Part shown: positions 12,140 to 28,215 of the stretch, piece after piece
Numbering within the stretch: position 1 is the stretch's first letter
Layout: every line of letters starts with the position of its first letter
Assembly (NCBI GenBank): GCA_048270185.1
Contig: JBLWTJ010000001.1
Span: 1 to 64,000 of the forward strand
Source: Bacteriovoracaceae bacterium
Lineage (GTDB): Bacteria > Bdellovibrionota > Bacteriovoracia > Bacteriovoracales > Bacteriovoracaceae
Length of the DNA stretch: 64,000 nt
Direction of reading: 5' to 3'
Position numbers and translations under genes: made by a program
The notes under the pieces: model-generated
What the model was told of the DNA's origin: nothing
Databases searched by the model: none
The model's input: the letters and a program-made list of their open reading frames with translations, nothing else

Positions 12140-12708
12140 AATTACTATTCATTGATTTCGAGGATAGTTTTACAAATAATATTCTTTCTTACCTAAGTCA
12201 TGACTTCAGTCTTGAAGTAAAAAACTATCGTGATGTTATGAGAGAGGATTTTCTTGATACAAATATTATTCTAGGGCCAGGGCCTGGTCATCCTGAGGAG
12301 TATCTGAACTTCTTTAGGTCAAAAGGACTTAATTTAGCACAGTTAATTCAACAAACTCGTCGTAGTTTAGGAATTTGCTTAGGGCATCAGATCATTCTTT
12401 CTGAAGTCTTTTATGCAATAATTGAGCGCAGTAACTTTCCTATGCACGGAAGGGGAATCAGAGTTTTAAACTCAGTTAATTTACTAGGCATTGATTTGGG
12501 AGAGTTTGTTTTTCAAAGATATAATTCTTTAACTGCTGTCATGAACAAGGCCACTAGTAATGATCATCAAATAATTTATGATGAAAATAACGAAATTCTC
12601 ATAACCTACCTTAGTGAACGAATTCTGACGATGCAATTTCACCCTGAATCTGTCGGCACATCTTGCAGTAAATCGATCTTCCAAGCAATCACTTCATTTT
12701 TCATGTAA
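12136..12708 (+). CDS. Class I glutamine amidotransferase (PabA/TrpG-like)
   Basis: IDFEDSFT, GPGPGHP, LGICLGHQ, QFHPES. Confidence 0.88.
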   Translation: MKLLFIDFEDSFTNNILSYLSHDFSLEVKNYRDVMREDFLDTNIILGPGPGHPEEYLNFFRSKGLNLAQLIQQTRRSLGICLGHQIILSEVFYAIIERSNFPMHGRGIRVLNSVNLLGIDLGEFVFQRYNSLTAVMNKATSNDHQIIYDENNEILITYLSERILTMQFHPESVGTSCSKSIFQAITSFFM

Positions 12709-12709
12709 A

Positions 12710-13384
12710 ATGAATAGGATGAAATTAGTACTCGATGGTATTTATGATAAGAGAAGTTTCCAGTTTGCAAATACGCATGCAAAGGGGATTTATGGCTTTG
12801 ATTTTAGGCCAAGAAGCTTTAATTTTGTTCAGGCCTATGTCGTTGAAGAATTATTGGCAGATAGTCTATTTAACGAAAATGATATTATCGAATTACACTT
12901 TGAAAATGACTCAGAAATCATAGTTAATTCAATCGTTTCACAGGTTGCAAATCATCATTCAAATATTCGCTTAAATTTTGGAACGAGCTCGATTCATCAA
13001 AAGAGTTATCTTGAATCCTTTGGCAAAGCCTTTAGTGTCATTTTCGATGCTAAAGATTCAAATGCATACCATAAGGTCTTATCTCCTTTGTGTCAGAGTG
13101 TTGTTTTTGATTATGAATTCTTGCACGATTTATCGGCAACAGGTCAACTTGATCGCTTCATCATTAATTTCTATTCAAAAGTCATGAAGGCCAAGAATGA
13201 TAAGTTTGAAATTGGTATAAGACTTAACTGGGACTCAAATCTTTCATCAAGTGTAATAGAAAGTATTGGGCCAAATTATATCAAATTTGAGATTTCACCA
13301 CAGGTTGAACGTTGTTATCGTAATATCGATGTCCCTAAGTTATCAGAATATATAGGCCATACAAGAAAGGCCCTTGCATTTTAA
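12710..13384 (+). CDS. Hypothetical protein, possibly a degenerate TrpF-like TIM barrel
   Basis: N-terminus KLVLDGI..YGFDFRPRSFNFV echoes TrpF KICGI..GFIF..SPRYV; size ~220 aa. Confidence 0.5.
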   Translation: MNRMKLVLDGIYDKRSFQFANTHAKGIYGFDFRPRSFNFVQAYVVEELLADSLFNENDIIELHFENDSEIIVNSIVSQVANHHSNIRLNFGTSSIHQKSYLESFGKAFSVIFDAKDSNAYHKVLSPLCQSVVFDYEFLHDLSATGQLDRFIINFYSKVMKAKNDKFEIGIRLNWDSNLSSSVIESIGPNYIKFEISPQVERCYRNIDVPKLSEYIGHTRKALAF

Positions 13385-13408
13385 TTCAATTCTATTTTAT
13401 AAGTAATT

Positions 13409-14167
13409 ATGAATATTTTACTTTCAAATGATGATGGCTTCTCGGCCGATGGAATTCAATGCCTTTACGAACATCTTAAAGATATAGCAAATGTCTCGAT
13501 CGTTGCACCTGATAAGGAGCGCTCGGCCACTTCACAAGCATTAACACTCCATGACCCATTAAGAGTTAAAAGAATTAATGACTACACCTATAGCTGTACC
13601 GGCTTTCCGGCCGATAGTGTTTTACTGGGAATCAATTCAATTCTAGATGTTAGGCCAGACCTTGTGATTTCTGGGATTAATCACGGGGCAAACCTTGGTC
13701 AGGATATTTACTACTCTGGTACCGTTGGTGCCGCAAGGCAGGCCGTATTTCAAGGAATTAAGGCCATTGCAGTCTCGACGGTAATGAGTTCAGCAGATGA
13801 GCAAAGACACTTCTCGACGGCAGCTGAGATCATTAGAGAGCTTGTTAAGAATAAGTCTGAAGCGATAGCTTCAATGCCTGATTGCTCACTGTTAAATATT
13901 AATGTTCCAAACCTTCATCCGTCTGAAGTAGGAGAGGTTATTTGGACTACACCACAGATGAGAAGATACTCGGAAGAAGTTCATGAGAGAGTTGATCAAA
14001 ATGGTCAACAATACTATTGGATTGGCGGATCGCCCCTTGAGATCGACCCTCACCATACATCTGATCATCACGCAATTATGAATGGTAATATTTCTTTTTC
14101 TTTACTAAACCTTTTGAATTTTTCGTCCGATGTGTTTGATGAATGGGCGGCAAAAATTTCCGATTAA
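13409..14167 (+). CDS. surE: 5'/3'-nucleotidase SurE
   Basis: ILLSNDDG, VAPDKERSA, SGINHGANLG, YSGTVGAA, NINVP. Confidence 0.96.
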   Translation: MNILLSNDDGFSADGIQCLYEHLKDIANVSIVAPDKERSATSQALTLHDPLRVKRINDYTYSCTGFPADSVLLGINSILDVRPDLVISGINHGANLGQDIYYSGTVGAARQAVFQGIKAIAVSTVMSSADEQRHFSTAAEIIRELVKNKSEAIASMPDCSLLNINVPNLHPSEVGEVIWTTPQMRRYSEEVHERVDQNGQQYYWIGGSPLEIDPHHTSDHHAIMNGNISFSLLNLLNFSSDVFDEWAAKISD

Positions 14168-14217
14168 TCAATATAACTGATTAGAGCGCTCATTCGAAAC
14201 TAAACGAATGGGGACTC

Positions 14218-14871
14218 ATGAAGAGGTTTGTTTTAATTTTTGGAATCTTGCTTACCATCTTAGGGTGTTCGACTCTTAAGAATGGACGCTATATTAAACT
14301 CACCGCTAATTACGATGCAAAAGAGCTTGCGAATATCTTTAATATCCCTCAATGGCAAATAGAAGAATTTAATAAGAATGCAGCTTTTAGAAAAGGTGAG
14401 ACAATATTCTTACCATACAAGAAAGGAATCCTCTTCAATCGCGTTGAGGGCCGCTCAATTTCTTCGATAAATTATCAACAACTTCGATCATCTTCGCGTT
14501 TCCTATGGCCTGTGCCTTCTTCAAAGAGGGTTTCATCTGGCTACGGACATCGTTGGGGGAGACCTCATGAAGGTATTGATATAGCTGCTCGTAAAGGTAC
14601 CTATATTGTTTCAGCAGACGCCGGAGTTGTTGTCTACAGTGGACGTAAATCTGGCTACGGTAATATTACAGTTATTTCACATGTTGGTGGCTTTTTTACT
14701 GTCTATGCTCACGCCAATAAGAACTATACTTCTCGTGGCCAGAAAGTAACTCGCGGACAAGTTATTGCAACAGTAGGAAATACTGGAAAATCGACAGGTA
14801 ATCACCTACATTTTGAAATTAGACACGATTCAAAGGCGTTTGATCCACTAAACTTTTTTCACAGACACTAG
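14218..14871 (+). CDS. M23 peptidase lipoprotein (NlpD-like)
   Basis: Lipobox ILGC, HEGID, YAH, STGNHLHFE; follows surE. Confidence 0.9.
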   Translation: MKRFVLIFGILLTILGCSTLKNGRYIKLTANYDAKELANIFNIPQWQIEEFNKNAAFRKGETIFLPYKKGILFNRVEGRSISSINYQQLRSSSRFLWPVPSSKRVSSGYGHRWGRPHEGIDIAARKGTYIVSADAGVVVYSGRKSGYGNITVISHVGGFFTVYAHANKNYTSRGQKVTRGQVIATVGNTGKSTGNHLHFEIRHDSKAFDPLNFFHRH

Positions 14872-15463: not shown

Positions 15464-15709
15464 TTATAAATAGTTAATTGTTATGTTTGAATTATACTTG
15501 CTAATAATATCTTTTACTAGAGTGTTACAAGCTAATATATCATCATTAATAATACATAAACGACAAATTGCTTCACCATCACAACTCGAGGCCACTGGCA
15601 GCTGTTTTAGACGAAGAAAGTTGAGAACATTTAGCTCCAGATCCTCTTGAGTAATATTAAAGTCCCAGGACTTGCCAGAAGCAAGGCCATCAATTCTTAT
15701 TACTGGCAT
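15464..15709 (-). CDS. Small 2Fe-2S ferredoxin-like protein
   Basis: SSCDGEAICRLC...LAC cysteine pattern. Confidence 0.75.
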   Translation of the reverse strand: MPVIRIDGLASGKSWDFNITQEDLELNVLNFLRLKQLPVASSCDGEAICRLCIINDDILACNTLVKDIISKYNSNITINYL

Positions 15710-16920
15710 GCTAACTGCTTATTACGTGGATCAATATATGTACTTAATTTACTTCCTAGTTCTAAAATCGTTAAAGAGCCGAGTGAAGGAGCGTAGTACT
15801 GTGAATTACTAGCATCCTGGATACTTTTTCCATATATTTCTGAGATCCTTCTCTTAGGGTTGTGTAGTAGTAGAGAACGTTTTGTATTCATGAGTTCTTC
15901 TGGACTAACTTGCTTAACATAGGACTTAATGAGCGTATTTAAAACTTGAGCATTATAAGTAATACCACTCATGAAGATGACTTGATCCGCTTGTTCTTTT
16001 GACTTTGAAAAGCATACTGCAGGGTAGTTGTCATTTTCGAAATTTGAAAAGATGATTTCATTTACAGAGTGGGCCAGATCTGGAATTGAGCTTGTGACAC
16101 CAATAATATAATTATTCTTATTTTTAAAATGAGCAAAGATATTATTGTAAGACTTCTTTGGCTTCTTTAAAATAACGACTTGTGCTTCATGTAATTTGTT
16201 ATCAAACGAGCAGCTATAGTTTCCGCGAGTAAAGAGATAGTCAGAACTGTAGCTCTTTGTCTTAAGTTTCTTTTGAGAAATTCTTTTTAATCGATTAAAT
16301 CTTTTTAAATAACTGACTCGTTGAAATAATTCATTTTCTCGAACACCTTGAGCACCTCTAAAATAGAGTTTCTTTAAGTTCTTTTTGGTAAAGAGTTCTC
16401 CTTGATTATCCTTGATGAATTCTTCAAGTGATTTAGAAGCGTAGATATATTCACTAGTTCTTTTTTCAATTAATTCCAATCTAGACTTTATTGCAAGTGG
16501 CTTCTTATAGAATTTCGCAAGCTTTTCAATAGCATTTATAAAAGAAAAATCATAGGTATCTTGTGGGATACTATTGATGAAAAACTCTCTTCCATCAACT
16601 TTTGCAAATAATAATGTATGAGAGTTCACTGTTGTTGACTGAGGTGAGAAGTACAATTGTGATAAAGCAAAATTTATTATTTGGTGGCGATAAGCATTAC
16701 TAGAGCTATCACTTGAAATTAGTTTTGATACTTCTTCCTTATTACGATTATTTTCTAAAAGTATATTTGATTTTTCTTCAATAACAGGGCAAGTGCTATT
16801 GATACTTTGACTTTCGTTGAGTTGCTTTTCAACTTCTGAGCAACCTGAAAATAATATTAAGAGTGAAATTATAAATAATAGTCTATGCTTCAAAATTATC
16901 ATCTTTGTGAAATTCTTCAT
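15700..16920 (-). CDS. Hypothetical lipoprotein
   Basis: Long ORF with lipobox FSGC; no recognised domain. Confidence 0.7.
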   Translation of the reverse strand: MKNFTKMIILKHRLLFIISLLILFSGCSEVEKQLNESQSINSTCPVIEEKSNILLENNRNKEEVSKLISSDSSSNAYRHQIINFALSQLYFSPQSTTVNSHTLLFAKVDGREFFINSIPQDTYDFSFINAIEKLAKFYKKPLAIKSRLELIEKRTSEYIYASKSLEEFIKDNQGELFTKKNLKKLYFRGAQGVRENELFQRVSYLKRFNRLKRISQKKLKTKSYSSDYLFTRGNYSCSFDNKLHEAQVVILKKPKKSYNNIFAHFKNKNNYIIGVTSSIPDLAHSVNEIIFSNFENDNYPAVCFSKSKEQADQVIFMSGITYNAQVLNTLIKSYVKQVSPEELMNTKRSLLLHNPKRRISEIYGKSIQDASNSQYYAPSLGSLTILELGSKLSTYIDPRNKQLACQ

Positions 16921-17248
16921 GGTCTTCGTAGTAAATTTCTAGATCATGGTCTGCTTCAGTGTTCACTTTACTTGAAAGATTATCTTGAAGTTCTGCAATG
17001 ATCTTATTTAGTGTCGTATTGTCACCGAATAATTCAAGAATAATCCAGACTCCTTTAGAATTTGAAGGAGTATTTGAGATTTTGAAACAAATTCCATTGC
17101 GATTAAGAAAACTTGTAACTTGATCAAAGGCCTTTTCTTGATAGGGAGTCGATCTTTCAGGTGGAGATGGAATAAAATAAGTAAAGGTTTGCTTATGTTT
17201 TGTATTTATTTTATTTTTTTCCTGCGAATTCCTGTTGAAAATACTCAT
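16883..17248 (-). CDS. Hypothetical protein
   Basis: 121-aa ORF with AAGGA RBS heading a minus-strand operon. Confidence 0.65.
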   Translation of the reverse strand: MSIFNRNSQEKNKINTKHKQTFTYFIPSPPERSTPYQEKAFDQVTSFLNRNGICFKISNTPSNSKGVWIILELFGDNTTLNKIIAELQDNLSSKVNTEADHDLEIYYEDHEEFHKDDNFEA

Positions 17249-17365: not shown

Positions 17366-17443
17366 TTGATCGACAGGATGTCGTAGCAAGAGATAGGCAT
17401 GAAGCCGAAAAATGGAGGGCCAGTTGCAGGGCCCTCTTTTTTT
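17366..17443 (+). ncRNA. Candidate small RNA with CAGGAUG hairpin loop (CsrA/Rsm-site-like)
   Basis: TATAAT at 17356-17361, CGAC-AGGAT-GTCG hairpin, GGC-ATGAA-GCC hairpin, terminator with + strand T7. Confidence 0.45.
17409..17443. terminator. Probably bidirectional intrinsic terminator
   Basis: GAGGGCC-N8-GGCCCTC with T7 on + strand and an A-run upstream. Confidence 0.8.
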
Positions 17444-17445
17444 AT

Positions 17446-18075
17446 CTAAATTTCAAAAATCTTTTTTTCAAAACCTTCATTTAATTTTTCTACTGATTGC
17501 CCTTGGGCCAAATTGATTACTTTAAATTTTCCATTTGTAATCTTAAAACTACCGCACTCTGTAACAACATAATCAACGACAGACTTACCCGTGAGTGGAA
17601 GTTCGCACTTTTCTAAAAGCTTTGGTGCACCATCTTTACTGAAGTGTCTCATCATGACGATAATATTCTTTGCGCCATTGACTAGATCCATTGCACCACC
17701 CATGCCTGTAATTTTCTTACCAGGAATTTTCCAATTGGCCAGGGAGCCTTCGATATCAACCTCCATTCCACCAAGTACACAGAAGTCAATATGGCCTCCG
17801 CGGATCATTCCAAAGCTTAAAGCACTATCAAAGAAGCTTGCCCCTTTTTCAACGCTAATTGTTTCTTTTCCTGCATTGATTAGAGTAGGTGAGACTTCAT
17901 CTTTCAATGGACTATCTCCCACACCGAGAACTCCATTTTCACTATGGATAATATAAGAATGATTCTTAGGTAGCTGAGAAGGAATTAAAGTCGGTAGTCC
18001 AATACCTAAGTTAATAGTTGAGTTATCAGCGAATAATGTAATGACTTCTTTTGCCATTTCTTCTTTTGACCACAT
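17446..18075 (-). CDS. scoB: 3-oxoacid CoA-transferase subunit B
   Basis: NLGIGLPT, SENG catalytic Glu, GMGGAMDL. Confidence 0.92.
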   Translation of the reverse strand: MWSKEEMAKEVITLFADNSTINLGIGLPTLIPSQLPKNHSYIIHSENGVLGVGDSPLKDEVSPTLINAGKETISVEKGASFFDSALSFGMIRGGHIDFCVLGGMEVDIEGSLANWKIPGKKITGMGGAMDLVNGAKNIIVMMRHFSKDGAPKLLEKCELPLTGKSVVDYVVTECGSFKITNGKFKVINLAQGQSVEKLNEGFEKKIFEI

Positions 18076-18077
18076 AA

Positions 18078-18782
18078 TTAATCCCTCACCCTTAAGTGCT
18101 CAATTGCATTTTCATAGTTACTACCTAAGTAGATTCTTTGGACGAAGACACCTGGAACATGTACGTCTTCAGGTTTGATATCTCCAAGTTCAACAATTTC
18201 TTCGACTTCAACGATGGCCGTCTTTGCTGCCATGGCCATTAAAGGAGAGAAGTTACGGGCCGTCTCTTTAAACCATAGATTTCCATAAGGGTCTGCTTTT
18301 TGCGCCTTGATAATAGCAAAGTCAGCGTGAAGAGCTTCCTCTAGGATACAAGGGCGATCAAAGTTTTTGACATCTTTTCCCTCTGCCACTTCTGTTCCAT
18401 AGCCTGTTGGTGTATAGAATGCTCTAATTCCCATGCCAGCAGCTCTAATTCTTTCACTTAGAGTTCCCTGTGGGACAAGTTCAATTTCGATTTCACCTGC
18501 AAACATTGCTGCTTCAAGATCGGGGTTACCACCAACATATGAGCAATAGCCTTTTGTGATCATTTTATTCTTTAAAAGCTTCACAAGACCACGTCCTGAG
18601 TTTCCAATATTATTAGAAATAACAGTTAAGTTATTTAAATTCATTGTTGCGAGTTGGTTAATTGAATTTTCTGGAATTCCACAAAGGCCAAAGCCTCCAC
18701 TCATAATTGTTGAGCCACTCGTTACATCTTCCAATGCTTGCTGGGCACTACTAAAAATTTTACTATACATATAAGTCCTCAA
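18078..18782 (-). CDS. scoA: 3-oxoacid CoA-transferase subunit A
   Basis: GGFGLCGIPE, PQGTLSERIRAAG, ARNFSP; real start may be a few codons downstream. Confidence 0.92.
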   Translation of the reverse strand: MRTYMYSKIFSSAQQALEDVTSGSTIMSGGFGLCGIPENSINQLATMNLNNLTVISNNIGNSGRGLVKLLKNKMITKGYCSYVGGNPDLEAAMFAGEIEIELVPQGTLSERIRAAGMGIRAFYTPTGYGTEVAEGKDVKNFDRPCILEEALHADFAIIKAQKADPYGNLWFKETARNFSPLMAMAAKTAIVEVEEIVELGDIKPEDVHVPGVFVQRIYLGSNYENAIEHLRVRD

Positions 18783-19965
18783 TTACTTCTTTTAAAATTA
18801 AAAGTTTTTGTGAAAGTTCTTGATTTGGAAAGTTTAAATATGGACAAAGAATAATTGTATTTCTTGTCATATTAATAAAGATACCTCTCTTAAGTAACTC
18901 TTCCCAAAGTTTTCGCATATCAAGTTTATTATCAATTAAGTCAATGGCCATAAGCATTCCAATACGTCTTGTTTTATCAACGATTGAAATATTACTAATG
19001 TCTTTTTCAAAGTTTTCTAAGAGCGCTTCATTCTTTCTCTTTAAATTTATAAAGTCTTGGTCTTCGATAAGATTTAAAACTTCATCAAGAAGCTTAAGTC
19101 CAATTGGATGGGCAGCATTTGTTAAACCACAATTTAAAATATGATCATCAAAATAGCTGGCGTTTTCTTCACTGACAAAGACTGCTCCAAAAGGGAAGAA
19201 GCCTCCAGATATATTCTTAGCAAATGTTATAAAGTCTGGTCTTAAGTTATAGTGACTAAGGCCAAAATCTTGGCCACAACGACCAAAGCCACAAATAACT
19301 TCATCAAGAATTAGTTTGATACCAAAGTTATTACAAATCTTTTGGATTTCGTCATAGTAACTTTGCGGTGGAATGTAGACGCCATTTCCTCCTGTTATTG
19401 TCTCTAGGCATATGGCCGCAATATTTTGTTCTCCAACTTGAGAAAGAATCTTCTTTGTCTCCACAAGTTTTGGGTCATTATAGAAGTTTGGGATGAAGGC
19501 ATGGAATTGTGTCGGTATGCCTGCTCCTTCCTTTCTCCAGTCTCCTGTGACTGCGAGGGCCCCAAGAGTTGCTCCGTGGTAAGAATTATCACAAGAGACT
19601 AAGTTCTTTCGTCCCGTAATCTGTCTTGCCATTTTTATAGCATTCTCATTTGATTCAGCACCGGAGAGTGTGTAGAAGATACGTCCATCAAGTCCAATCT
19701 TATCAATGAATCTTTGAGAAACCTTCTCTTTTAATTCAAACTCCGCTTTGGGAATTGCCATCGGCAGTACGCTAAGCTGGTCAATTAACGCTTGCTCAAG
19801 TTGCTGATTTCTAAGGCCAAATGATTGATGGTAGCTACCACTACTAAGATCGTAAATCTTATTTCCATCATTAGTTAAATATCCCCAGTCAAATGTTGAT
19901 TTAAGATTGATCTTCTTGGCGTTACTCTGTGCAGTCCATGTGTGTAAATAGGGAAGATGTCCCAT
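18763..19965 (-). CDS. Class III (omega-amino) PLP aminotransferase
   Basis: SGAESNENAIK, SYHGAT, DEVICGFGR, PDFITFAK. Confidence 0.92.
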   Translation of the reverse strand: MGHLPYLHTWTAQSNAKKINLKSTFDWGYLTNDGNKIYDLSSGSYHQSFGLRNQQLEQALIDQLSVLPMAIPKAEFELKEKVSQRFIDKIGLDGRIFYTLSGAESNENAIKMARQITGRKNLVSCDNSYHGATLGALAVTGDWRKEGAGIPTQFHAFIPNFYNDPKLVETKKILSQVGEQNIAAICLETITGGNGVYIPPQSYYDEIQKICNNFGIKLILDEVICGFGRCGQDFGLSHYNLRPDFITFAKNISGGFFPFGAVFVSEENASYFDDHILNCGLTNAAHPIGLKLLDEVLNLIEDQDFINLKRKNEALLENFEKDISNISIVDKTRRIGMLMAIDLIDNKLDMRKLWEELLKRGIFINMTRNTIILCPYLNFPNQELSQKLLILKEVIEDLYV

Positions 19966-19994
19966 AAACTCTCACTTCAAACATCTAATTTATA

Positions 19995-21083
19995 TCAAAT
20001 TAGGGGTAGAGGAATTTCTACTTCAATAAAATTATCATCGTATTCTTTGCAACCACGCCATACTCTAAGAATTTCTGACTTATAATTATAAAGTGCACCA
20101 CCACAAGTTTGTGAAGGATCTGCTGCTCCTTCTGGGGCGTAGTGTGAACAAATCGAGATAGGGTGTCCATCATGAGAAGTTAAGAATTGATAAATAGAAG
20201 ACTCATCATTTAATGTCTTCTCATATTTCTTTGCTAACTCATAACGTGGCGTTGTTGTTTTACTTATATTATTAACATCTTCCACTGCGATAATATTATC
20301 TGCTAGGCAGTGGTTGGTATGGTAGATTAAATTCTTTGTTTGTGGTTTTAAGACTTCCTTGGCCGTAGGTGTGATCTCATAGTTAAAAGCTTTGCTACCA
20401 TCACTAATTAAATAATTGTGACCAGATGTAATATTAGATTCCATAAGAAGCTTAATGATATCTTCTTGCTTTTGTTGAAGCGCCACTTTTCTAATCAGTG
20501 CTGGCCAAATAATGCCATTTTTTCCGTCGACGACATTAATATTATTAACACCAATAAATTGCCCGCTATTATTTATGGCCATAAGTCCTAGGCAGCCGCA
20601 TACAGTATAAATATAGGCCGTCTTACTTGAATCCTTTGGGTCTTTTACCTTAAGTAGCATTAAGTAATTCTTAGCACTTTGGTGCATATCCCACGTCTGA
20701 CCTGCAATACTTACGTCTTCATCGATATAAGAGAGGGAAGTACACCCTTCGTCTTGGACTTCTTTTTGAAATTGGATATCTCTAAAATCAGTGTAATTAT
20801 TTAGGATAATGATATCTGTTACTGAAGACTCACTACCCTGAGCTATTCCTTCTATTTCTCGAGCTAAGTCTAAGTCAAACTTCTTAGTCTCTGCAAATTG
20901 AAGCTTTGCAAACTCTTCTAATTTTTCCTTCAAATGAGGAGACCTCTTAAGGAGAAGATTAGTTCTTATTTGAATGAGCTCTTTGATGGATACTTTAAAT
21001 GTCTTGCCGTGAGCAAGCCCATTTTCAAAAGAGTCATCAGATTCATATTCAAAAATTGGAAGATTAATATCGGTCATTAACAT
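19995..21083 (-). CDS. C45-family Ntn-hydrolase/acyltransferase (isopenicillin N acyltransferase-like)
   Basis: EIEGIA.G, EG|CT autocleavage Cys, GQTWD, HTNH, SICSH. Confidence 0.88.
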   Translation of the reverse strand: MLMTDINLPIFEYESDDSFENGLAHGKTFKVSIKELIQIRTNLLLKRSPHLKEKLEEFAKLQFAETKKFDLDLAREIEGIAQGSESSVTDIIILNNYTDFRDIQFQKEVQDEGCTSLSYIDEDVSIAGQTWDMHQSAKNYLMLLKVKDPKDSSKTAYIYTVCGCLGLMAINNSGQFIGVNNINVVDGKNGIIWPALIRKVALQQKQEDIIKLLMESNITSGHNYLISDGSKAFNYEITPTAKEVLKPQTKNLIYHTNHCLADNIIAVEDVNNISKTTTPRYELAKKYEKTLNDESSIYQFLTSHDGHPISICSHYAPEGAADPSQTCGGALYNYKSEILRVWRGCKEYDDNFIEVEIPLPLI

Positions 21084-23923
21084 TTAAAGAACCAGCTTCC
21101 TGTATTGCCAAATCTTTTAGGAGCATCAATCTCCATTGAATAAGGTCTCTTTTCAAATTTTACATAGTCTTTTACTTGATTTGAACTCATATACTCTAGG
21201 GCCTGAGCAAGTCCATAAGAGTCACCATCCCAAGTCGAGATCATCATTAATGGCCTTGACTCATAGACTTCTTCTGAGAGCATACAAATACCAATTTGTC
21301 CTCCCATGTGGACATAAGTAGCATCTGGAGATAAACCTAATTCTTTAGATAGAAGTTTTCTATTCTTGTGGAAGTAAATTGACTCATTAAAGACAACTTT
21401 AGTTCCATGCTTGTGTGAGAGAGTGATAATTGAATTTAGTTCTTCTTTTGAGAATGATTCAAGACGTTTCCCAATATAGAGACATAAGATATCTTCACTC
21501 TTAAGTGCTTCCTCAAGCTCACTTAGATCAGAGATTCTTGTGTTTGGATAAAAATCTATCTTACCCGACAGAGTCGCTGACATAAAACTTTGCTTACCAA
21601 AGTAGTCACCATTAAAAGAGAGAACTTTTGTTCTTTGCTTTCCATTTTTTATGAGAATTGATTTATAAATCTTATCCACACACTCACTATGGCCACTTGC
21701 TGTAAATAAGTGGGCAAGTCCTGTTGGTGCTAGCTCTTTTAGCCCTTTAAGGTTTTCCATAAAACTTGTATCAATGAAGTTTGAAAGACAGATCTTATTA
21801 ACAAGTGTCTCCATATTATCAAAAGAAGGAGTATTTAATATAGGTGCCGTTGAAAGCTTTGGCGCCTCATTATTCCATTTTAGATTTTGACGATAAATAA
21901 TTACGTCTCTGTGCTCTTCATTATCAAGATAATTTTCTTTTAAAGTGAACTCTATAATCGCCCCTAGTGAACAATTAATTGTTAGCATTGCACCTGCATG
22001 TATATCTCGGTTACGACCATAAATATATTCAAAGCCACTTGTACTAGCTAGGAGAGTAAGAGCATATTTTAAGTATTTACCCATACCACGAGATTGCTCG
22101 TCTCCAATAATTGTTGTATCAAGCATGTAAAGAGTCTTGTCGTTATTAAAGTATTTTACAAGTCTTAGACCACTTTCTAGTGGGAAGTGCGAAATTTTAC
22201 CAGCAAACGAAATTCCAATTAATTGCTTTGTGTTTGAAAGCAGTCCGATGGCAATTGAATTCTTGCATTTGGCAATTTTTTCAAATTTATCAATACTTGT
22301 TTGTCTTGTCGGTTCGTATGTATGACGTTGGATTTCAGAAATCTGATGCTTGTAATAATCGAAGTTCTCTTCATCAATAACAATGAGTTCTTGTTCACAT
22401 TCGTCTTTAAAGAATTTTGCAGCAAAATCGAAAGAGCTTTTAAAGTCAGATTGACCTTGGAAGGCCTGGACTAATTTCTCATGCCATAGATATTCTTTTG
22501 GTGCCGTTACTTGAGTTTTTGGAGAAAACTTAAGCTTAGAAGTTTTGTCCAGATATACGCGATTTGCAATTTCATCAATAGCATCAAAGAGATAGTCGAT
22601 ATCTTCTTTTGACCAAGCAGTATTAAGTCTGAAGCGAAGAGTGTTGTCTCCTGCTTGATAGTAGAGGAGTCCCAGGTCAAAGCGGTGCTTAATAAAACCT
22701 GGAATATCATTGGCATCTGAAAGGTCAAAAGCAAACGCCACTCCAAAGCAACGAGGAGAAGATAATTGCTCCCATTTAGAAATTAAAACTTCAAGCTTTT
22801 GCTTTGTATAGTCTTCAATGTCTTTAATTCGATAGCGTTGTTGATCAATACTAATTGCCTGATAGTAGCCACGAATAACTGATGTTGTTTGAAATTCATT
22901 GTTTTCCCAAAGAGGATCTTGCGTTAGAACAATCCCTGATTGGGCCTTCTTTGCACAAGTTACATAGTCTGGATAGACGATACTTCCTGTGCTGTCTTTT
23001 AAATCGAATGTTCTATGCCAGAAGAAGTCGCGACCAAGGTTAAATCCTGTTTGTACTTCGTCGTATATAATGGCCACGCCATAAGACTTAGTTAAAAGAG
23101 TTAGGGCCGTGTGGAAACGATTTGTCGAGTAACGATCTCCACCTTCACATTGCATCGGCTCAATTAAAAGTGCAAAGTGTTCATCTTTCTTAAGTTCTTC
23201 GTTAAGTTGTTTTAATGAGGCGATCTCAGTTGCAAGTAATTGATCTGCACCTTTTTCAAATTGAGCAAGCTTTGAATCAAAGTCATTTGCAAATGGATTT
23301 TCCCATAGCTTTCTCCAGTCGTTTGAAATATCAAGTGTGAAGTTATCATCTTTTGATTCTGGATATTTTATAAAAGTCGTCTCATGCCCCGGAATTTGAT
23401 ACGGTTCTCTTTTAGATGGATTCCAAGTCGAAAAGAGTGTTGATAGAAAACGTCCGTGGAAGCTTCCTTCAAAAGCAATAATCTTCTTTGCTCCTACAAT
23501 GGCCGACTTCTTATAGGCCATAATAAGTGCTGTTTCATTGGCCTCTGCACCAGAATTGACAAAGACTGGAGTATAATTTGGATTAGAAGTTTTCTCTCTT
23601 AATAAATTTGTAAAAGACTCAGCAATCTCAACAAAAGTTGAATCTTGGTAATTACCAGTCCATGCACTTTGGTGCATTGTTGTTCCAAAGAGTGCTGTAG
23701 CATTAAATCCAAGTCCTAGGGTTGCAATTTGTGAAGCAGCATCAAGAAGATATTCTGACTTATTCTTATCCGCTGTCTCCATTGCAAGGTATGCGCCTTG
23801 GGAATTGCGATGTTGTGGAATATATTCCTTCTTTTCTGCTGGAGTAAAATTATCTTGATACATTTGTGCAAGCTTGTTCTTTGCGTGCTCATGGCTGTTT
23901 GAACCTATTAATTCGATTGTCAT
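21077..23923 (-). CDS. Fusion: class III aminotransferase (lysine 6-aminotransferase-like) + GNAT + degenerate aminotransferase domain
   Basis: NSGAEANE, FEGSFHGR, EPMQCEGGD, DEVQTG, TCAKKAQ; central QSRGMGK acetyl-CoA motif; C-terminal copy (SGHSECVDK, SFNGDYFG, NES, STWDGD) lacks the PLP lysine. Confidence 0.85.
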   Translation of the reverse strand: MTIELIGSNSHEHAKNKLAQMYQDNFTPAEKKEYIPQHRNSQGAYLAMETADKNKSEYLLDAASQIATLGLGFNATALFGTTMHQSAWTGNYQDSTFVEIAESFTNLLREKTSNPNYTPVFVNSGAEANETALIMAYKKSAIVGAKKIIAFEGSFHGRFLSTLFSTWNPSKREPYQIPGHETTFIKYPESKDDNFTLDISNDWRKLWENPFANDFDSKLAQFEKGADQLLATEIASLKQLNEELKKDEHFALLIEPMQCEGGDRYSTNRFHTALTLLTKSYGVAIIYDEVQTGFNLGRDFFWHRTFDLKDSTGSIVYPDYVTCAKKAQSGIVLTQDPLWENNEFQTTSVIRGYYQAISIDQQRYRIKDIEDYTKQKLEVLISKWEQLSSPRCFGVAFAFDLSDANDIPGFIKHRFDLGLLYYQAGDNTLRFRLNTAWSKEDIDYLFDAIDEIANRVYLDKTSKLKFSPKTQVTAPKEYLWHEKLVQAFQGQSDFKSSFDFAAKFFKDECEQELIVIDEENFDYYKHQISEIQRHTYEPTRQTSIDKFEKIAKCKNSIAIGLLSNTKQLIGISFAGKISHFPLESGLRLVKYFNNDKTLYMLDTTIIGDEQSRGMGKYLKYALTLLASTSGFEYIYGRNRDIHAGAMLTINCSLGAIIEFTLKENYLDNEEHRDVIIYRQNLKWNNEAPKLSTAPILNTPSFDNMETLVNKICLSNFIDTSFMENLKGLKELAPTGLAHLFTASGHSECVDKIYKSILIKNGKQRTKVLSFNGDYFGKQSFMSATLSGKIDFYPNTRISDLSELEEALKSEDILCLYIGKRLESFSKEELNSIITLSHKHGTKVVFNESIYFHKNRKLLSKELGLSPDATYVHMGGQIGICMLSEEVYESRPLMMISTWDGDSYGLAQALEYMSSNQVKDYVKFEKRPYSMEIDAPKRFGNTGSWFFKC

Positions 23924-23946: not shown

Positions 23947-24939
23947 TTATTTTCTTATGTCTCGAGAGATCTTCTCTTCTAAAAAATCACAAAACTTTAG
24001 TCCAGTATTTTCTAGCATCTTCGGAAACATCGAAATACTAGTCATGCCTGGAAAAGTATTAATTTCATTTAAGTAAACTTCGCCATCAGCTAAGAAGAAG
24101 TCTACTCGTGATAAGTGTCTAAGTTTTAAGTTTTTAAAAACGGTCTTTGCAATAATTTGCATTTGATTAATTTGATTGATTGTTAAATCAGGTGCTTCTA
24201 CAAAGGTCTTGGCCTTTGAATCATTACTATATTTCTGATTGTAGTCGTAGAATAAATCTTCTTCATTAACGATTTCACCAGGAACAGTAGCATGGAGGTT
24301 GTCTCCTTGCTCAAAGACGGCTATCTCAAGTTCACGTCCTTTAAGTGTCTTTTCAATTAAAACGTCATCGCTATATTCAAATGCCTTATTAATCGAATCA
24401 ATTAGATCGCTCTTATCTGTGACATGATAGCAGCCAACCGATGAGCCTTGGCTTGCGGCCTTGATGAAAATATCTTCATTAGATATTTCAAAGAAGTCGA
24501 CTATTTCTTGGCGTTCATAAGGCAGGTTCTTATGTACAGACATCCAAGGAGCAGTTGGTATTCTTAGGTGATCAAACCAAAGCTTTGTTGTCACCTTATT
24601 AAAGCAAATACTACTTCCTTCGTGAGCTGGCCCTAAGTAGGGCAGTTTGTGAAATTCAAGAAATGGTTGAATCTCGCCACTTTCTCCTGGAGGTCCATGG
24701 ATAACTGGAATCACATAACTTATATATGGACGCTGTGTTGCAGTCTCTAGAATTTGTCCATTAAGACTTACTTTGTGGCCATCAAGAGTCAATTGGCCTG
24801 ACTCATTTAGAACCACAAGGATTGGATTGTATGACTTTGTGAGTGCGACTTGCTCCTTTATGTATTGAGCTGAGCGAATCGAAACTTCGTGTTCGCTTGA
24901 GCCTCCACCACAAATAATTAAGATATTTTTCCTTTCCAT
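23947..24939 (-). CDS. ddl: D-alanine--D-alanine ligase
   Basis: GGGSSEHEVS, HGPPGE, QGSSVG, RVDFF, NEINTFPG. Confidence 0.95.
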   Translation of the reverse strand: MERKNILIICGGGSSEHEVSIRSAQYIKEQVALTKSYNPILVVLNESGQLTLDGHKVSLNGQILETATQRPYISYVIPVIHGPPGESGEIQPFLEFHKLPYLGPAHEGSSICFNKVTTKLWFDHLRIPTAPWMSVHKNLPYERQEIVDFFEISNEDIFIKAASQGSSVGCYHVTDKSDLIDSINKAFEYSDDVLIEKTLKGRELEIAVFEQGDNLHATVPGEIVNEEDLFYDYNQKYSNDSKAKTFVEAPDLTINQINQMQIIAKTVFKNLKLRHLSRVDFFLADGEVYLNEINTFPGMTSISMFPKMLENTGLKFCDFLEEKISRDIRK

Positions 24940-24975
24940 GGAAACCTTCTCTCTAAAATGGAAACTCCCTAAGGC

Positions 24976-26718
24976 TTATGCCTTAGGGTATTTTAAATCG
25001 TCTAATGCTTTAAGTTTCTCAAGCATTTCTGCGTTCGTCCAATTAAATGAACCTTTGGATCCATGCTTACGAACTGCAACCGCATTGTTTTCAATTTCGC
25101 GATCACCCACAACAAACATAAAAGGAATTTTAGACTTTTGAATTTGACGAGTCTTATATCCCATCGTTTCATTTCGATCATCAACGCTTACACGGTAACC
25201 TTGTGCAAATAATTGATCTTTGAGTTTGTGGGCCGCTTCACCATGAGCATCATTATTTACTGGAACGATGACAATTTGCTCTGGAGCTAGCCAAAAAGGG
25301 AAGACACCGGCAACGTGTTCTGTATATACTCCAAAGAATCTCTCAAGAGATCCAAGCAGGGCACGGTGAACAACTACTGGTCTTTCTTCACCACCATCTG
25401 CCGTCGTAAACTTTAGATCAAAACGATCCGGAAGTTGGAAGTCTAGCTGGATTGTTCCTAGTTGCCACTTACGTCCGATAGCATCTGCTACTTCAATATC
25501 AATTTTTGGTCCGTAGAATGCACCGTCGCCTTCTTTGATGACATAGTCGTGACCTGAAGCCTTTAATGCTTCTTCAAGTGCATTCTCAGCAATATCCCAA
25601 GTCTTATCATCTCCGGCCTTCTTTTCAGGACGAGTCGATAGGTTAACAGTGATATTATCAAAACCAAAGAGCTCGTAAGCAGTGAAGATCATCTTCATTG
25701 TTCTTTGAATCTCTTCTTGTACTTGATCAAGAGCTAGGAAGATGTGAGCGTCATCTTGGCAGAAAGAGCGAACACGCGTAAGACCTGCAAGGGCCCCTGC
25801 TTTTTCATTTCTGTGGAGTCGGCCAAAGTCTGCATAGCGAAGAGGTAGGTCACGGTAGCTGTACTTATAATGCTTAAACATTAGCATGTGACATGGGCAG
25901 TTCATTGGTTTTACTGCATACTCTCTGTCGTCTATCTTTGAGAAGAACATATCTTCTTTATAGTGTTCGTAGTGACCAGAAGTGTGCCAAAGAGAGCTAT
26001 CAAGAATTTGAGGAGTAATTACTTCATCATATTCATAAATGCGGTAAAGTCTTCTGATATAATTAACTAGTTCATTAATAACAATTGTCCCCTTAGGCAT
26101 AAAGAATGGTGCCCCTGGAGCAACTGGCTCAAAGTGGAAGAGCTCAAGCTCTTTACCTAACTTTCTATGGTCACGCTTCTTTGCTTCTTCAAGCATCATT
26201 AAATGCTGCTTAAGCTCTTTCTTATCCATGAATGAAGCAGCATAGATTCTTTGCATAACTTCACGTTTCTCATCGCCACGCCAGTATGCTCCAGCAATAC
26301 TAAGTAGCTTAAAGCCTTGTGGTAGATCTGAAGTATTTTCAACGTGAGGCCCACGACAAAGGTCAATGAATTCTCCTTGAGAATAGCAACTAACGGCCTC
26401 GTCTTCAGGGATTGCTTCAATTAGTTCAACTTTTAGATCTTGTCCTTGTGATTTGAAGAATTCCACAGCTTCTGGTCTTGAGAGAACTTTTCTATCAATT
26501 GGCAGCTTTTCTTTAATAATGGCCTTCATCATCTCTTCAATTTTTGGAAGATCATCCTCGCCCAGGGTTCGATCCATCAGAATATCGTAGTAGAATCCAT
26601 TTTCAATTACTGGTCCAACACCAAATTGGACGTTTGAATCTGGGTAAAGTCTTGAAATTGCTTGCGCCATAAGGTGGGCGCTCGAGTGTCTGATTGTGTC
26701 TAAATCGTACTTAGGCAT
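24976..26718 (-). CDS. thrS: Threonine--tRNA ligase (short form lacking TGS domain)
   Basis: RHSSAH, DLCRGPH, RDHRKLG, KPMNCP, GAFYGPK; GGAG RBS before ATG 26718. Confidence 0.97.
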   Translation of the reverse strand: MPKYDLDTIRHSSAHLMAQAISRLYPDSNVQFGVGPVIENGFYYDILMDRTLGEDDLPKIEEMMKAIIKEKLPIDRKVLSRPEAVEFFKSQGQDLKVELIEAIPEDEAVSCYSQGEFIDLCRGPHVENTSDLPQGFKLLSIAGAYWRGDEKREVMQRIYAASFMDKKELKQHLMMLEEAKKRDHRKLGKELELFHFEPVAPGAPFFMPKGTIVINELVNYIRRLYRIYEYDEVITPQILDSSLWHTSGHYEHYKEDMFFSKIDDREYAVKPMNCPCHMLMFKHYKYSYRDLPLRYADFGRLHRNEKAGALAGLTRVRSFCQDDAHIFLALDQVQEEIQRTMKMIFTAYELFGFDNITVNLSTRPEKKAGDDKTWDIAENALEEALKASGHDYVIKEGDGAFYGPKIDIEVADAIGRKWQLGTIQLDFQLPDRFDLKFTTADGGEERPVVVHRALLGSLERFFGVYTEHVAGVFPFWLAPEQIVIVPVNNDAHGEAAHKLKDQLFAQGYRVSVDDRNETMGYKTRQIQKSKIPFMFVVGDREIENNAVAVRKHGSKGSFNWTNAEMLEKLKALDDLKYPKA

Positions 26719-26928
26719 GTAATCTCCGTAAATTGGGCGTAAAATCTTCACTTTTCTTTATGTGAAGGCCCATAATATCAAATAATTAAAGGGTTCATCA
26801 ATCTTTTGAGTGTAAATATTTTAATCCAGTTAAACGGTTTTTGACTTGTAGCGTGATGACATGTTATGAACATGTTGTGGTAAGATTCCACAAAATTCTC
26901 ACAGCGCAAATTTCAATAGGGAGTTGAT

Positions 26929-28215
26929 ATGCAGATGACCGGTGGACACGTATCTGATTCAAAAAATGAACAACAGACTTTCAAGTCAGAAGTCCTTGGA
27001 TTTGTAGGCTCAGGAGAGGGATTAATTCCATCTCAAGAAAGTCTAACGAAACTAGAAGTTGGTAAAGCTTATTATCAATTAGGTAAGCTTCATTATGACA
27101 AGGCTGATCTTAATAAGGCCGAAGTTAACTTCCTTAAAGCGATTGATTGTGCTGAACGTCCACAAGACAACTTTCGTGTTTTAAAAATTCTTAGTTTCCT
27201 TATTCGTATTGCTGCTGAGAAACTTGAAGACGATAAAGCATCTCAATATATTGAGCAGAGTGAAGATATAATTAATGATCTTCAGATGAATCTTGGTAGC
27301 CTTTCTGCTGAGTATTTCTACTATGCTGGTTTAATTAAATCTTATCACAATGATTTTGAGGGAGCATATCGTGACCTTGAATTATCTTATAATCGCTCCA
27401 AAGAAGAGAACGATCCGGACCTGCATTCAAAGTGCTTACTAGCTCTTGCTAATAATGCATTTAATAGAGGTGAACTTGATCTTTCTCTCGAGTTTATGGG
27501 GCAACTTGATAATCTACTAAAGATTATCAATAAGGAATACCTTGGTGGATCAATGCATATGACATATGGAAAGATCCTAATGGCAAAGGGTGATATTGAA
27601 GCTTCTCTTAAGCATTTTCAACTCGCAAACACGACTCTTCAGAATAAGAAGTGTTGGAACCTTTACGGATATATTCTTTTAGGTATTGGACAAGTTGAAA
27701 AGGTGAGAGGGGATTACGATAAAGCAACTCTTTATTATAATCTTGCTAAACAAGCAGTTGATTCGACAACATTTAAGCGTCTGACAAATGTACTTGATGC
27801 TGAAATTCACGAAGTAAATGATTCAAGTGTTGATATATACCTGGATCGAAATAATAGAAAAGTAAAAGAAAAGAATATCGGTGTTATCGACTTTAAGCAC
27901 CGTTTCGTACTTCTTGAGATCTTGTTCCTTCTAGCGAAGAATCGTGGTTCTTTCTATGATAAAGAAGATCTTGCTCGTGATATCTGGAAAGATGAATATA
28001 ACCCACTAATTCACGATAAATTAATTTATACTTCAATCTCTCGTCTTAGAAAGCTTATCGAGCCAAAAGACAATAGTGATACAAAGAGAAAGTATATCAT
28101 TCGTGGTAAAGATGGTTATACATTCAACCCAGATGTTAAGATTCGTTACCAAATGGAAACGAAACTTACAGCAGGTAAGGCCGTTGCCAACGTAGATATC
28201 TCATCACCTGTATAG
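26929..28215 (+). CDS. TPR-repeat protein with C-terminal OmpR-type winged-helix DNA-binding domain
   Basis: Repeated (L)G..Y...G....A...Y helices; KEDLARDIW, ISRLRKLIE, GYTF wHTH motifs. Confidence 0.8.
   Translation: MQMTGGHVSDSKNEQQTFKSEVLGFVGSGEGLIPSQESLTKLEVGKAYYQLGKLHYDKADLNKAEVNFLKAIDCAERPQDNFRVLKILSFLIRIAAEKLEDDKASQYIEQSEDIINDLQMNLGSLSAEYFYYAGLIKSYHNDFEGAYRDLELSYNRSKEENDPDLHSKCLLALANNAFNRGELDLSLEFMGQLDNLLKIINKEYLGGSMHMTYGKILMAKGDIEASLKHFQLANTTLQNKKCWNLYGYILLGIGQVEKVRGDYDKATLYYNLAKQAVDSTTFKRLTNVLDAEIHEVNDSSVDIYLDRNNRKVKEKNIGVIDFKHRFVLLEILFLLAKNRGSFYDKEDLARDIWKDEYNPLIHDKLIYTSISRLRKLIEPKDNSDTKRKYIIRGKDGYTFNPDVKIRYQMETKLTAGKAVANVDISSPV

Follow-up and report, generated by a model that had tools for sequence, protein, structure and literature searches.

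Degradation of L-beta-lysine by Pseudomonas B4 was reportedly worked out in the Barker laboratory around 1979-81 and defined by enzyme activities only, among them EC 2.6.1.65 and EC 3.5.1.51. The activities ascribed to it are those of one acetyltransferase, a pair of distinct transaminases, and a deacetylase-thiolesterase whose substrate is 4-acetamidobutyryl-CoA and whose product is 4-aminobutyrate; the pathway reportedly used a cleavage enzyme that takes acetyl-CoA. A second related system, the kamA-yodP-yodQ-yodR-yodS-yodT operon of Bacillus subtilis, is said to encode a lysine 2,3-aminomutase, a class III aminotransferase and a CoA-transferase of two subunits, besides a GNAT and a deacetylase. 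Here we describe a five-gene cluster in a stretch of 64,000 nucleotides from a Bacteriovoracaceae bacterium (assembly GCA_048270185.1, contig JBLWTJ010000001.1, positions 1 to 64,000; in the following, the window). The genes encode a fusion protein of 948 amino acids (aa) that we call FUS, a hydrolase of family C45 (C45), a class III aminotransferase (AT2) and the two CoA-transferase subunits ScoA and ScoB. Our data point to a catabolic operon that would degrade lysine via beta-lysine, N6-acetyl protection, a 3-oxoacid and thiolysis. We give this reading, in which we infer substrate, regiochemistry and order of the steps, a probability of about 0.42, and consider it likely that the cluster serves beta-lysine catabolism in general.

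When compared with the B4 pathway, and judged from genes alone, each specialised B4 activity has one candidate here, and a source of beta-lysine is present as well. A CoA-transferase and a thiolase would replace the B4 cleavage enzyme, the candidate acetyltransferase shares one chain with an aminotransferase, and for the deacetylase the candidate is the C45 protein, an N-terminal nucleophile (Ntn) hydrolase. The cleavage-enzyme family BKACE (PF05853) was not found in the genome that contains the window (95.9% complete), which fits CoA-transferase and thiolase taking over the cleavage step. A full-text literature search, with most subscription journals outside it, returned no genes tied to 4-acetamidobutyryl-CoA deacetylase, N6-acetyl-beta-lysine transaminase or 6-acetamido-3-oxohexanoate. 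An earlier reading of the window, based on the sequence only, had not recognised the gene combination as a described pathway. At the level of genes we also found no description, but the proposed enzymology matches that reported for Pseudomonas B4, and the kamA-yod operon is analogous. We regard the cluster as a variant, on the gene level, of a type of pathway whose biochemistry is already known, and its three-domain enzyme as new.

The kamA-yod operon is functionally unassigned and by description shares the aminomutase, GNAT, deacetylase, CoA-transferase and aminotransferase roles with the window cluster. Its deacetylase is said to be of the M20 type and its GNAT to be a separate protein; there is a single aminotransferase, and a thiolase is not known to be part of the operon. 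In the window cluster, unlike in kamA-yod, the deacylase candidate is a C45 protein and not a metallo-deacetylase, and the GNAT has no NCBIfam match. According to the available text of PMC6522883, the physiological role of B. subtilis KamA is still to be determined, YodT is uncharacterised and both are SigE-dependent; the structure named there as closest to YodT is not among the top 60 PDB matches of AT2. Overexpression of yodP-kamA yields N-epsilon-acetyl-beta-lysine without osmoprotection, as stated in the accessible part of PMC9049628, and an excerpt of PMC12361552 places yodQ and yodS next to kamA. The N6 acetylation by YodP fits the N6-acetyl route. In lysine fermentation (KamA, KamDE, Kdd, Kce, Kal), too, lysine 2,3-aminomutase catalyses the first step and a CoA-transferase takes part. 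Kce belongs with the BKACE enzymes that the window genome lacks, the clusters showed no genes for a 5,6-aminomutase or the dehydrogenase, and GNAT and C45 have no counterpart in the fermentation. A fermentation variant has an acyl-CoA beta-transaminase, which is a class III enzyme, as far as the available text of PMC3149608 goes.

In the proposed route, a KamA-family aminomutase, encoded elsewhere in this genome, would convert L-lysine to beta-lysine (3,6-diaminohexanoate). The GNAT domain of FUS would acetylate the distal N6 amine of beta-lysine, so that the later 3-oxo intermediate would be kept from cyclising. One aminotransferase, for which we favour AT2, would convert the 3-amino to the 3-oxo group, and ScoAB would put CoA onto the resulting 6-acetamido-3-oxohexanoate. 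A thiolase, unlinked here and clustered in relatives, would then generate acetyl-CoA and 4-acetamidobutyryl-CoA. C45 would take off the acetyl group, and possibly cleave the thioester too, to give 4-aminobutyrate, which the other aminotransferase, taken to be the N-terminal domain of FUS, would turn into succinate semialdehyde. Three features favour AT2 as the beta-transaminase: taurine and omega-transaminases are the structures closest to it, its reading frame overlaps that of scoA, and it is lost along with the aminomutase. No dedicated aldehyde dehydrogenase (ALDH) is needed for this route, and none was noticed in the annotated FUS-type clusters. The sequence-only reading had proposed acylation, transamination, deacylation, a second transamination and final CoA activation of a diamine, lysine or a similar substrate. 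The general logic of this scheme fits our results, but substrate and order of steps differ: the context of a KamA-family aminomutase suggests beta-lysine as the specific substrate, and transfer of CoA is probably a mid-route step on a 3-oxoacid and not the final one.

Conservation of the cluster was analysed in a species-level genome collection, in which 228 stretches encode a FUS relative and 77 loci were kept; counts for single genes include only loci with enough DNA. The gene for C45 lay downstream of the FUS gene in 63 of 65 loci; the count was 59 of 61 for AT2, 57 of 59 for scoA and 56 of 58 for scoB, with L016 and L075 as the exceptions. Gene-neighbourhood conservation had been suggested earlier as a check on the proposal, and these counts show that the genes do not lie together by chance. 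Since thrS and ddl are also conserved upstream, synteny within this family is weak evidence by itself; distant loci without thrS and ddl are stronger evidence that the cluster genes belong together. The five-gene set is kept in three arrangements and under at least three phylum-level labels, in agreement with the earlier claim that the genes form a unit. At L038, L056 and L077 (GC content 0.42-0.57) the order is FUS-C45-AT2-scoA-KamA-like-scoB-thiolase. Hence, in these distant lineages scoA and scoB physically flank the gene of the KamA-like aminomutase, and the thiolase belongs to the set in addition to the five genes proposed before. The FUS proteins of these three loci are 35-37% identical to FUS of the window and 38-47% identical to each other. 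This arrangement with an embedded KamA-like gene was found in Planctomycetota and in two other distant lineages. By record title, the cluster also occurs in groundwater and freshwater records.

Starting from the aminomutase, we compared 80 loci with a KamA-like gene. In 25 of them, mostly titled Planctomycetota (Pirellulales), FUS and/or C45 lie upstream of AT2-scoA-KamA-scoB-thiolase. The remaining loci comprise six with a variant module (see below), eight with the core only, 12 cut by contig ends and 29 with the aminomutase alone, the last being those of Bacteriovoracaceae and of a group at about 50% identity. The conserved core looks like a brief pathway for a beta-amino acid, composed of aminomutase, AT2, ScoAB and a thiolase that releases acetyl-CoA. 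For beta-lysine as substrate, FUS and C45 must handle the second amine.

The KamA-like ortholog of the window genome (G000:C1:302092-303420) lies 280 kb from the cluster among unrelated neighbours, and its product is 68% identical to the embedded protein of L038. It passed the KamA family model (TIGR00238, 256 bits, cut-off 199) and stays below the equivalog cut-offs for glutamate and arginine aminomutase; by these scores it belongs to a subfamily separate from the AblA-type lysine 2,3-aminomutase (LAM). When aligned to LAM 2a5h, the protein keeps the C-x3-C-x2-C triad as well as Arg134, Asp293, Asp330 and Lys337, and the equivalents of the latter four residues are conserved in all 67 subfamily sequences. 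In LAM, Asp293 and Asp330 presumably bind the epsilon-ammonium group of lysine, and we take them to be replaced by Lys/Asn in glutamate 2,3-aminomutase. Because the Asp/Asp pair is kept, lysine is the likely substrate, and conversion of lysine to beta-lysine is the likely reaction predicted for the KamA-like enzyme. As a control, a different and widespread 383-aa KamA paralog, taken from the second family (f4), adjoined no cluster gene in any of 80 loci found for it.

Two further observations concern the surroundings of KamA-like genes. The group at about 50% identity (L247-L256, L260, L261; titles Myxococcota, Polyangia and Gammaproteobacteria) stands alone, with no cluster gene within 9 kb, and keeps the Asp/Asp pair in 11 of 11 sequences. 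In the window genome, a penicillin-amidase-family Ntn hydrolase (G000:C1:299800-302000; L080 7835-10006) is encoded divergently, 87 nt from the KamA-like gene. This penicillin amidase was considered as a partner and rejected, the pairing being conserved in none of the 80 loci.

The phyletic distribution was determined in 300 genomes of the phylum plus the one that contains the window. FUS was detected at E<=1e-30 in 62 of the 301 genomes, including 41 of 67 in the family of the window and 15 of 20 in family f4, where the form is divergent; at the same threshold it was absent from three large families (0 of 34, 0 of 35 and 0 of 34 genomes). The KamA-like ortholog (E<=1e-80) was present in 39 of 301 genomes, all from the window's family (38 of 67). 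Of the 67 same-family genomes, 38 carry both genes, three (G219, G276, G288) carry FUS alone, 26 carry neither, and the KamA-like gene alone occurs in none of them; this co-occurrence may reflect few events, related genomes being non-independent. More telling is genus g17: the cluster is intact in G162, and from G219 and G276, each assembled in two contigs and 96% and 93% complete, the KamA-like gene and AT2 are both missing. This contrast indicates that the KamA-like gene and AT2 go together and that FUS and C45 can stand without them.

FUS had been described from the sequence as a fusion of two parts. Aminotransferase and GNAT were right, and a third, catalytically dead aminotransferase-like domain had been overlooked. 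The N-terminal domain matches Aminotran_3 (PF00202) over residues 42-452 with 132.9 bits (cut-off 30.5). Its best PDB matches are 1vef (E 2.1e-14), an acetylornithine/acetyl-lysine aminotransferase, and the lysine epsilon-aminotransferase (LAT) 2cin (E 2e-8), and overall it is closest to acetylornithine/acetyl-lysine, gamma-aminobutyrate (GABA) and lysine-epsilon aminotransferases. It stays under the equivalog cut-off of every named aminotransferase (PRK08117 107.5/574, ArgD 97/410 and LAT_fam TIGR03251 78/521 bits); in NCBIfam, PRK08117, argD and PRK05769 come out on top, none of them reaching its cut-off. The stretches D288-E-V-Q and A324-K325-K326 are invariant in alignments of 16 and 22 sequences, and K325 or K326 is the candidate for the lysine that binds pyridoxal phosphate (PLP). 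By these features the N-terminal domain looks like an active class III aminotransferase.

The C-terminal 495 residues of FUS from the window have no Pfam, NCBIfam or PDB sequence match, with no family at E<=10 for the GNAT part; PF00583 (GNAT) scored above cut-off at about residues 535-640 in four of six FUS relatives scanned. AlphaFold modelled residues 490-700 from a 33-sequence alignment with a predicted local distance difference test (pLDDT) value of 90.8 and a predicted template modelling (pTM) score of 0.87. Foldseek gave at least 500 matches to this model at E<=0.001. Among the matches listed, almost all are GNAT acetyltransferases, with RimI 5isv on top (E 2.7e-9). The domain contains a Q-S-R-G-M-G-K stretch with G615 invariant and K619 nearly invariant, and Q-x-x-G-x-G is presumably the type of stretch by which GNATs bind CoA. 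As modelled, the middle domain is a GNAT-fold acyltransferase.

Residues 701-948 align with the profile of the N-terminal domain over 150 columns (hhalign probability 97%, E 1.1e-10). In this alignment A-K-K-A-Q of the N-terminal domain lies opposite L-G-G-Q, and D-E-V-Q opposite N-E-T. The AlphaFold model (pLDDT 81.9) has its best Foldseek matches in PigE 4ppm (5.7e-11) and the acetylornithine aminotransferase 1vef (9.9e-11). The C-terminal domain thus folds like the PLP-binding domain of class III enzymes without the PLP lysine; since this lysine is replaced in the profile alignment, we classed the domain as a pseudo-enzyme, a dead copy. Class III aminotransferases act as dimers, and the dead copy is probably a stand-in for the second subunit within one chain. 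In total, 439 FUS relatives were detected. Each of the 120 listed spans 95% or more of the query; the named records among them are Halobacteriovorax, Bacteriovorax and Bacteriovoracaceae, and the closest named ones are from marine Halobacteriovorax.

The 362-aa protein matches the NCBIfam model C45_proenzyme (NF040521) with 146.6 bits (cut-off 85) and the Pfam model AAT (PF03417) with 47.3 bits (cut-off 23.2). Its alignment with isopenicillin-N acyltransferase 2x1d (E 3.8e-19) brings the Gly-Cys nucleophile into register, and Cys114 is invariant among the 69 orthologs compared, 67 of which have Gly113. The protein is, by homology, a member of the peptidase C45 / acyl-CoA:6-aminopenicillanic acid (6-APA) acyltransferase family with predicted autoproteolysis. 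The two proteins share this fold family, but the similarity is only 72 bits, and isopenicillin-N acyltransferase belongs to fungal secondary metabolism, whereas the C45 protein of the window has a bacterial amino-acid catabolic context. C45 relatives such as isopenicillin-N acyltransferase use acyl-CoA and cleave an amide, and by analogy this would fit action on 4-acetamidobutyryl-CoA in the proposed route.

AT2 matches Aminotran_3 with 209 bits in Pfam, and its Lys250 is invariant (64 of 64). Its best PDB match is taurine:2-oxoglutarate aminotransferase 6jix (1.5e-58), followed by omega-transaminases. ScoA scored 266.5 bits with TIGR02429 (cut-off 128.5) and ScoB 268.5 bits with TIGR02428 (cut-off 243.55); ScoB contains the S-E-N-G stretch, which we take to be the site of the catalytic Glu. 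With both subunits above cut-off, ScoAB is assigned to the family I 3-oxoacid CoA-transferases. The matched families include PcaI and PcaJ, so that CoA-transferase families are common to the cluster and the end steps of the beta-ketoadipate pathway (PcaIJ/PcaF); the thiolases of the clusters are not closest to PcaF. Pfam, NCBIfam and the structure models together show that the family calls made earlier for aminotransferase, GNAT, C45, second aminotransferase and ScoA/ScoB were right.

Several results weigh against the N6-acetyl route. Substrate and regiochemistry are what we infer, and the KamA-like protein falls below the LAM equivalog cut-off (TIGR03820, 279.5 vs 525.4 bits). The GNAT domain of FUS matches no NCBIfam model, so homology is silent on its substrate. 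With AT2 as the beta-transaminase, FUS would join the first and the last steps, an odd pairing, and aminomutase, thiolase and succinate-semialdehyde dehydrogenase (SSADH) are all unlinked in this genome. In G219 and G276, which have neither the KamA-like gene nor AT2, FUS and C45 are intact and lie 1.4-1.8 Mb from each other, and family f4 has fusion-like and C45 genes without a KamA-like ortholog; the FUS and C45 pair may have a separate use of its own. Finally, six Planctomycetota-type loci (L194, L196-L199, L258) replace FUS and C45 by three genes, for a sodium:solute symporter, an ALDH resembling 1-pyrroline-5-carboxylate (P5C) dehydrogenase and a class III aminotransferase of ornithine/GABA type.

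In this variant, the ALDH (type B) reaches about 410-429 of about 650 bits with P5C dehydrogenase models and 256-308 bits with SSADH models. The aminotransferase is above the cut-off of PRK05769 (594 vs 552 bits). A FastTree phylogeny of the aminomutase nests the variant loci in a Planctomycetota clade of 12 rows (support 99) together with six FUS-type clusters. Identities between the two types are close to those within the FUS type: 77% vs 81% for the KamA-like protein, 64% vs 70% for AT2, 84% vs 84% for ScoA, 78% vs 77% for ScoB and 72% vs 74% for the thiolase. A core that stays unchanged when FUS and C45 are swapped would fit a route via 3-aminoadipate better than the N6-acetyl route.

How the two aminotransferases share the steps, and which amine is acetylated, can be drawn in two ways, with N6 or N3 as the acetylated position. 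In the N3 version, which is the main rival and which we regard as somewhat unlikely, the GNAT would acetylate the 3-amino group of beta-lysine, the N-terminal domain of FUS would transaminate the 6-amino group, and an unlinked ALDH would produce N-acetyl-3-aminoadipate. C45 would remove or recycle the acetyl group, AT2 would form 3-oxoadipate, and ScoAB and the thiolase would act like PcaIJ and PcaF to yield acetyl-CoA and succinyl-CoA. FUS would then join consecutive steps, which explains the fusion of GNAT and aminotransferase better, and the proximity of its N-terminal domain to 1vef as well as the PcaI/PcaJ membership of ScoA and ScoB are in agreement with this. The N-terminal domain and the variant aminotransferase also share PRK08117 and PRK05769 as top NCBIfam families, and the latter enzyme, together with the P5C-dehydrogenase-like ALDH (428/648 bits), could make 3-aminoadipate from beta-lysine. 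The nested position of the variant, with no extra divergence of the core, points in the same direction, as does the persistence of FUS and C45 in G219 and G276, which would be expected of an autonomous module that protects, transaminates and deprotects. On the other hand, this route needs an ALDH. The type B enzyme was found in none of the 25 FUS/C45-type loci of the aminomutase-centred set (FUS-centred loci lie outside this screen), and no ALDH was noticed in the flanks of those FUS-type clusters that were annotated; the variant clusters do carry one beside their aminotransferase. In addition, PcaF is not the best match of the thiolases in the clusters, which reach 266 of 597 bits with it. 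Bacillus YodP acetylates N6, not N3, in the available text of PMC9049628.

A more specific form of the 3-aminoadipate route, which we hold to be unlikely, takes FUS as a new, self-contained enzyme that pairs, in one chain, an active aminotransferase with its dead copy and places a GNAT next to the single active site, and C45 as an ArgJ-like partner that would hand on the acetyl group. The two would form a portable module for protection, transamination and deprotection, inserted into a KamA-AT2-ScoAB-thiolase core that leads via 3-aminoadipate and 3-oxoadipate to succinyl-CoA and acetyl-CoA and is common to Bacteriovoracaceae and Planctomycetota. If so, this would be an aerobic lysine route of an undescribed kind. 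The same logic of protecting one amine, transaminating the other and deprotecting underlies the arginine succinyltransferase and ArgA/ArgD/ArgE/ArgJ routes; no sequence membership among the Ast enzymes was seen, and the FUS-type clusters are without the type B ALDH.

It is improbable that the cluster acts on another diamine or omega-amino substrate (putrescine, cadaverine, ornithine or a taurine-like compound), or that ScoAB is an unrelated ketone-body enzyme next door. The taurine:2-oxoglutarate aminotransferase as nearest structure of AT2, the occurrence of FUS and C45 without a KamA-like gene in some genomes, and the generally high synteny in Bacteriovoracaceae, where thrS and ddl are conserved upstream as well, would be compatible with this. 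However, the same gene set occurs in three arrangements across distant lineages with differing flanks, scoA and scoB enclose the KamA-like gene there, and AT2 overlaps scoA. A diamine route would moreover need an ALDH and has no use for a 3-oxoacid CoA-transferase or a thiolase.

Still less probable is a role outside catabolism, in which the cluster would produce or turn over N-epsilon-acetyl-beta-lysine to serve as a compatible solute, the function of ablA/ablB in methanogens. The closest named relatives are marine, but the cluster is also present in the groundwater and freshwater records, two aminotransferases, CoA-transferase, thiolase and deacylase are degradative, and the GNAT domain matched no NCBIfam model. 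A KamA-family enzyme with a GNAT does correspond to the ablAB pair, but the compound gave B. subtilis no osmotic protection, both according to the accessible part of PMC9049628. Equally improbable is a 2-aminoadipate route, with the N-terminal domain of FUS as lysine epsilon-aminotransferase and the KamA-like protein as a 2-aminoadipate 2,3-aminomutase feeding AT2, ScoAB and thiolase: partial LAT matches (TIGR03251 78 bits, 2cin 2e-8) and a saccharopine-dehydrogenase-like gene upstream in one variant locus are in its favour, but with an acidic substrate the two lysine-binding Asp residues of LAM should be replaced, and all 67 sequences retain them. Also, FUS-type clusters do not contain the type B ALDH, and this route leaves GNAT and C45 unexplained.

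If the N6-acetyl route is correct, the cluster would supply genes for N6-acetyl-beta-lysine transaminase and 4-acetamidobutyryl-CoA deacetylase, two activities apparently gene-less so far, and the C45 family would gain a role in primary catabolism. It would also explain lysine use by amino-acid-fed predators (Bacteriovoracaceae) and by many Pirellulales, and suggest a function for the kamA-yod operon of Bacillus. FUS itself represents an enzyme of three domains that probably carries its own pseudo-subunit. In the species-level collection, about 228 fusion genes bear just the label 'aminotransferase class III', and an established function would correct all of them.

The positions of the features are listed in Table 1. 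The five co-oriented open reading frames (ORFs) were confirmed in the ORF listing of the window, on the minus strand and spanning 17446..23923, tightly packed and at exactly the coordinates given earlier. FUS and C45 overlap by 7 nt, C45 and AT2 are separated by 29 nt, AT2 and scoA overlap by 20 nt, and 2 nt lie between scoA and scoB. The hairpin behind scoB has 7-8 pairs, six of them G-C, and is readable on both strands, with the strongest T-run on the plus strand; from its sequence it is likely the end of the transcription unit.

Table 1. Positions of the cluster genes, the FUS domains and the adjacent hairpin in the window.
Feature	Coordinates	Strand	Basis
FUS, 948-aa three-domain protein	21077..23923	-	ORF + Pfam + structure models
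FUS N-terminal domain, residues 1-455, active-looking class III aminotransferase	22559..23923	-	Pfam, PDB matches
FUS middle domain, residues 490-700, GNAT-fold acyltransferase	21824..22456	-	AlphaFold, Foldseek
FUS C-terminal domain, residues 701-948, degenerate class III aminotransferase PLP-domain	21080..21823	-	hhalign, Foldseek
C45-family autoproteolytic Ntn acyltransferase/hydrolase, 362 aa, proposed N-deacetylase	19995..21083	-	NCBIfam, Pfam, PDB
AT2, 400-aa class III aminotransferase, proposed beta-amino-acid transaminase	18763..19965	-	Pfam, PDB
ScoA/PcaI-family 3-oxoacid CoA-transferase subunit A, 234 aa	18078..18782	-	TIGR02429
ScoB/PcaJ-family 3-oxoacid CoA-transferase subunit B, 209 aa	17446..18075	-	TIGR02428
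Terminator-like G+C-rich hairpin directly 3' of scoB	17414..17437	-	consensus match only

Upstream of the cluster and on the same strand are thrS and then ddl (23947-26751, minus), ddl starting 36 nt past thrS and ending 23 nt before the FUS gene. A G+C-rich hairpin (24967-24988) lies between thrS and ddl and overlaps the thrS stop. Upstream of FUS, ddl is conserved in 66 of 72 loci and thrS in 57 of 70; a divergent gene for a 428-aa TPR protein with an OmpR-type DNA-binding domain (26929-28215, plus strand) also stays in place across most Bacteriovoracaceae loci. The ddl gene is the sole one in the genome above the family cut-off and we take it to be a housekeeping gene that may be co-transcribed with the cluster and stands outside the pathway. 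A second Ddl-like frame outside the window (G000:C1:1254167-1255048) reaches 128 bits, below the cut-off, and contains one in-frame TAG; it may be a broken gene or two genes. Downstream of the scoB hairpin, three ORFs of 121, 406 and 81 aa (15464-17248, minus) had no Pfam or NCBIfam match, and weak homologs of them recur downstream of scoB in many related loci.

Elsewhere in the genome, the best SSADH-like ALDH with an adjoining thiolase (C1:745-748 kb) was considered for the missing parts and dropped, as the two genes sit in a phenylacetate-type cluster. This locus (L102, G000:C1:741000-748200) encodes two enoyl-CoA hydratases, a PaaA/C-like protein, a 3-hydroxyacyl-CoA dehydrogenase, the thiolase and the ALDH, with a 4-hydroxyphenylpyruvate-dioxygenase-like gene upstream. 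In family f4, the fusion-like gene and C45 are found beside another class III aminotransferase and a thiolase, and L085 of this family additionally has a divergent CoA-transferase pair. At L083, from another family, a 1024-aa MFS-acyltransferase-AMP-binding fusion (11514-14588) is inserted between C45 and the aminotransferase/thiolase pair; it presumably resembles lysophospholipid acyltransferase/acyl-(acyl carrier protein) synthetase and is probably unrelated to the pathway.

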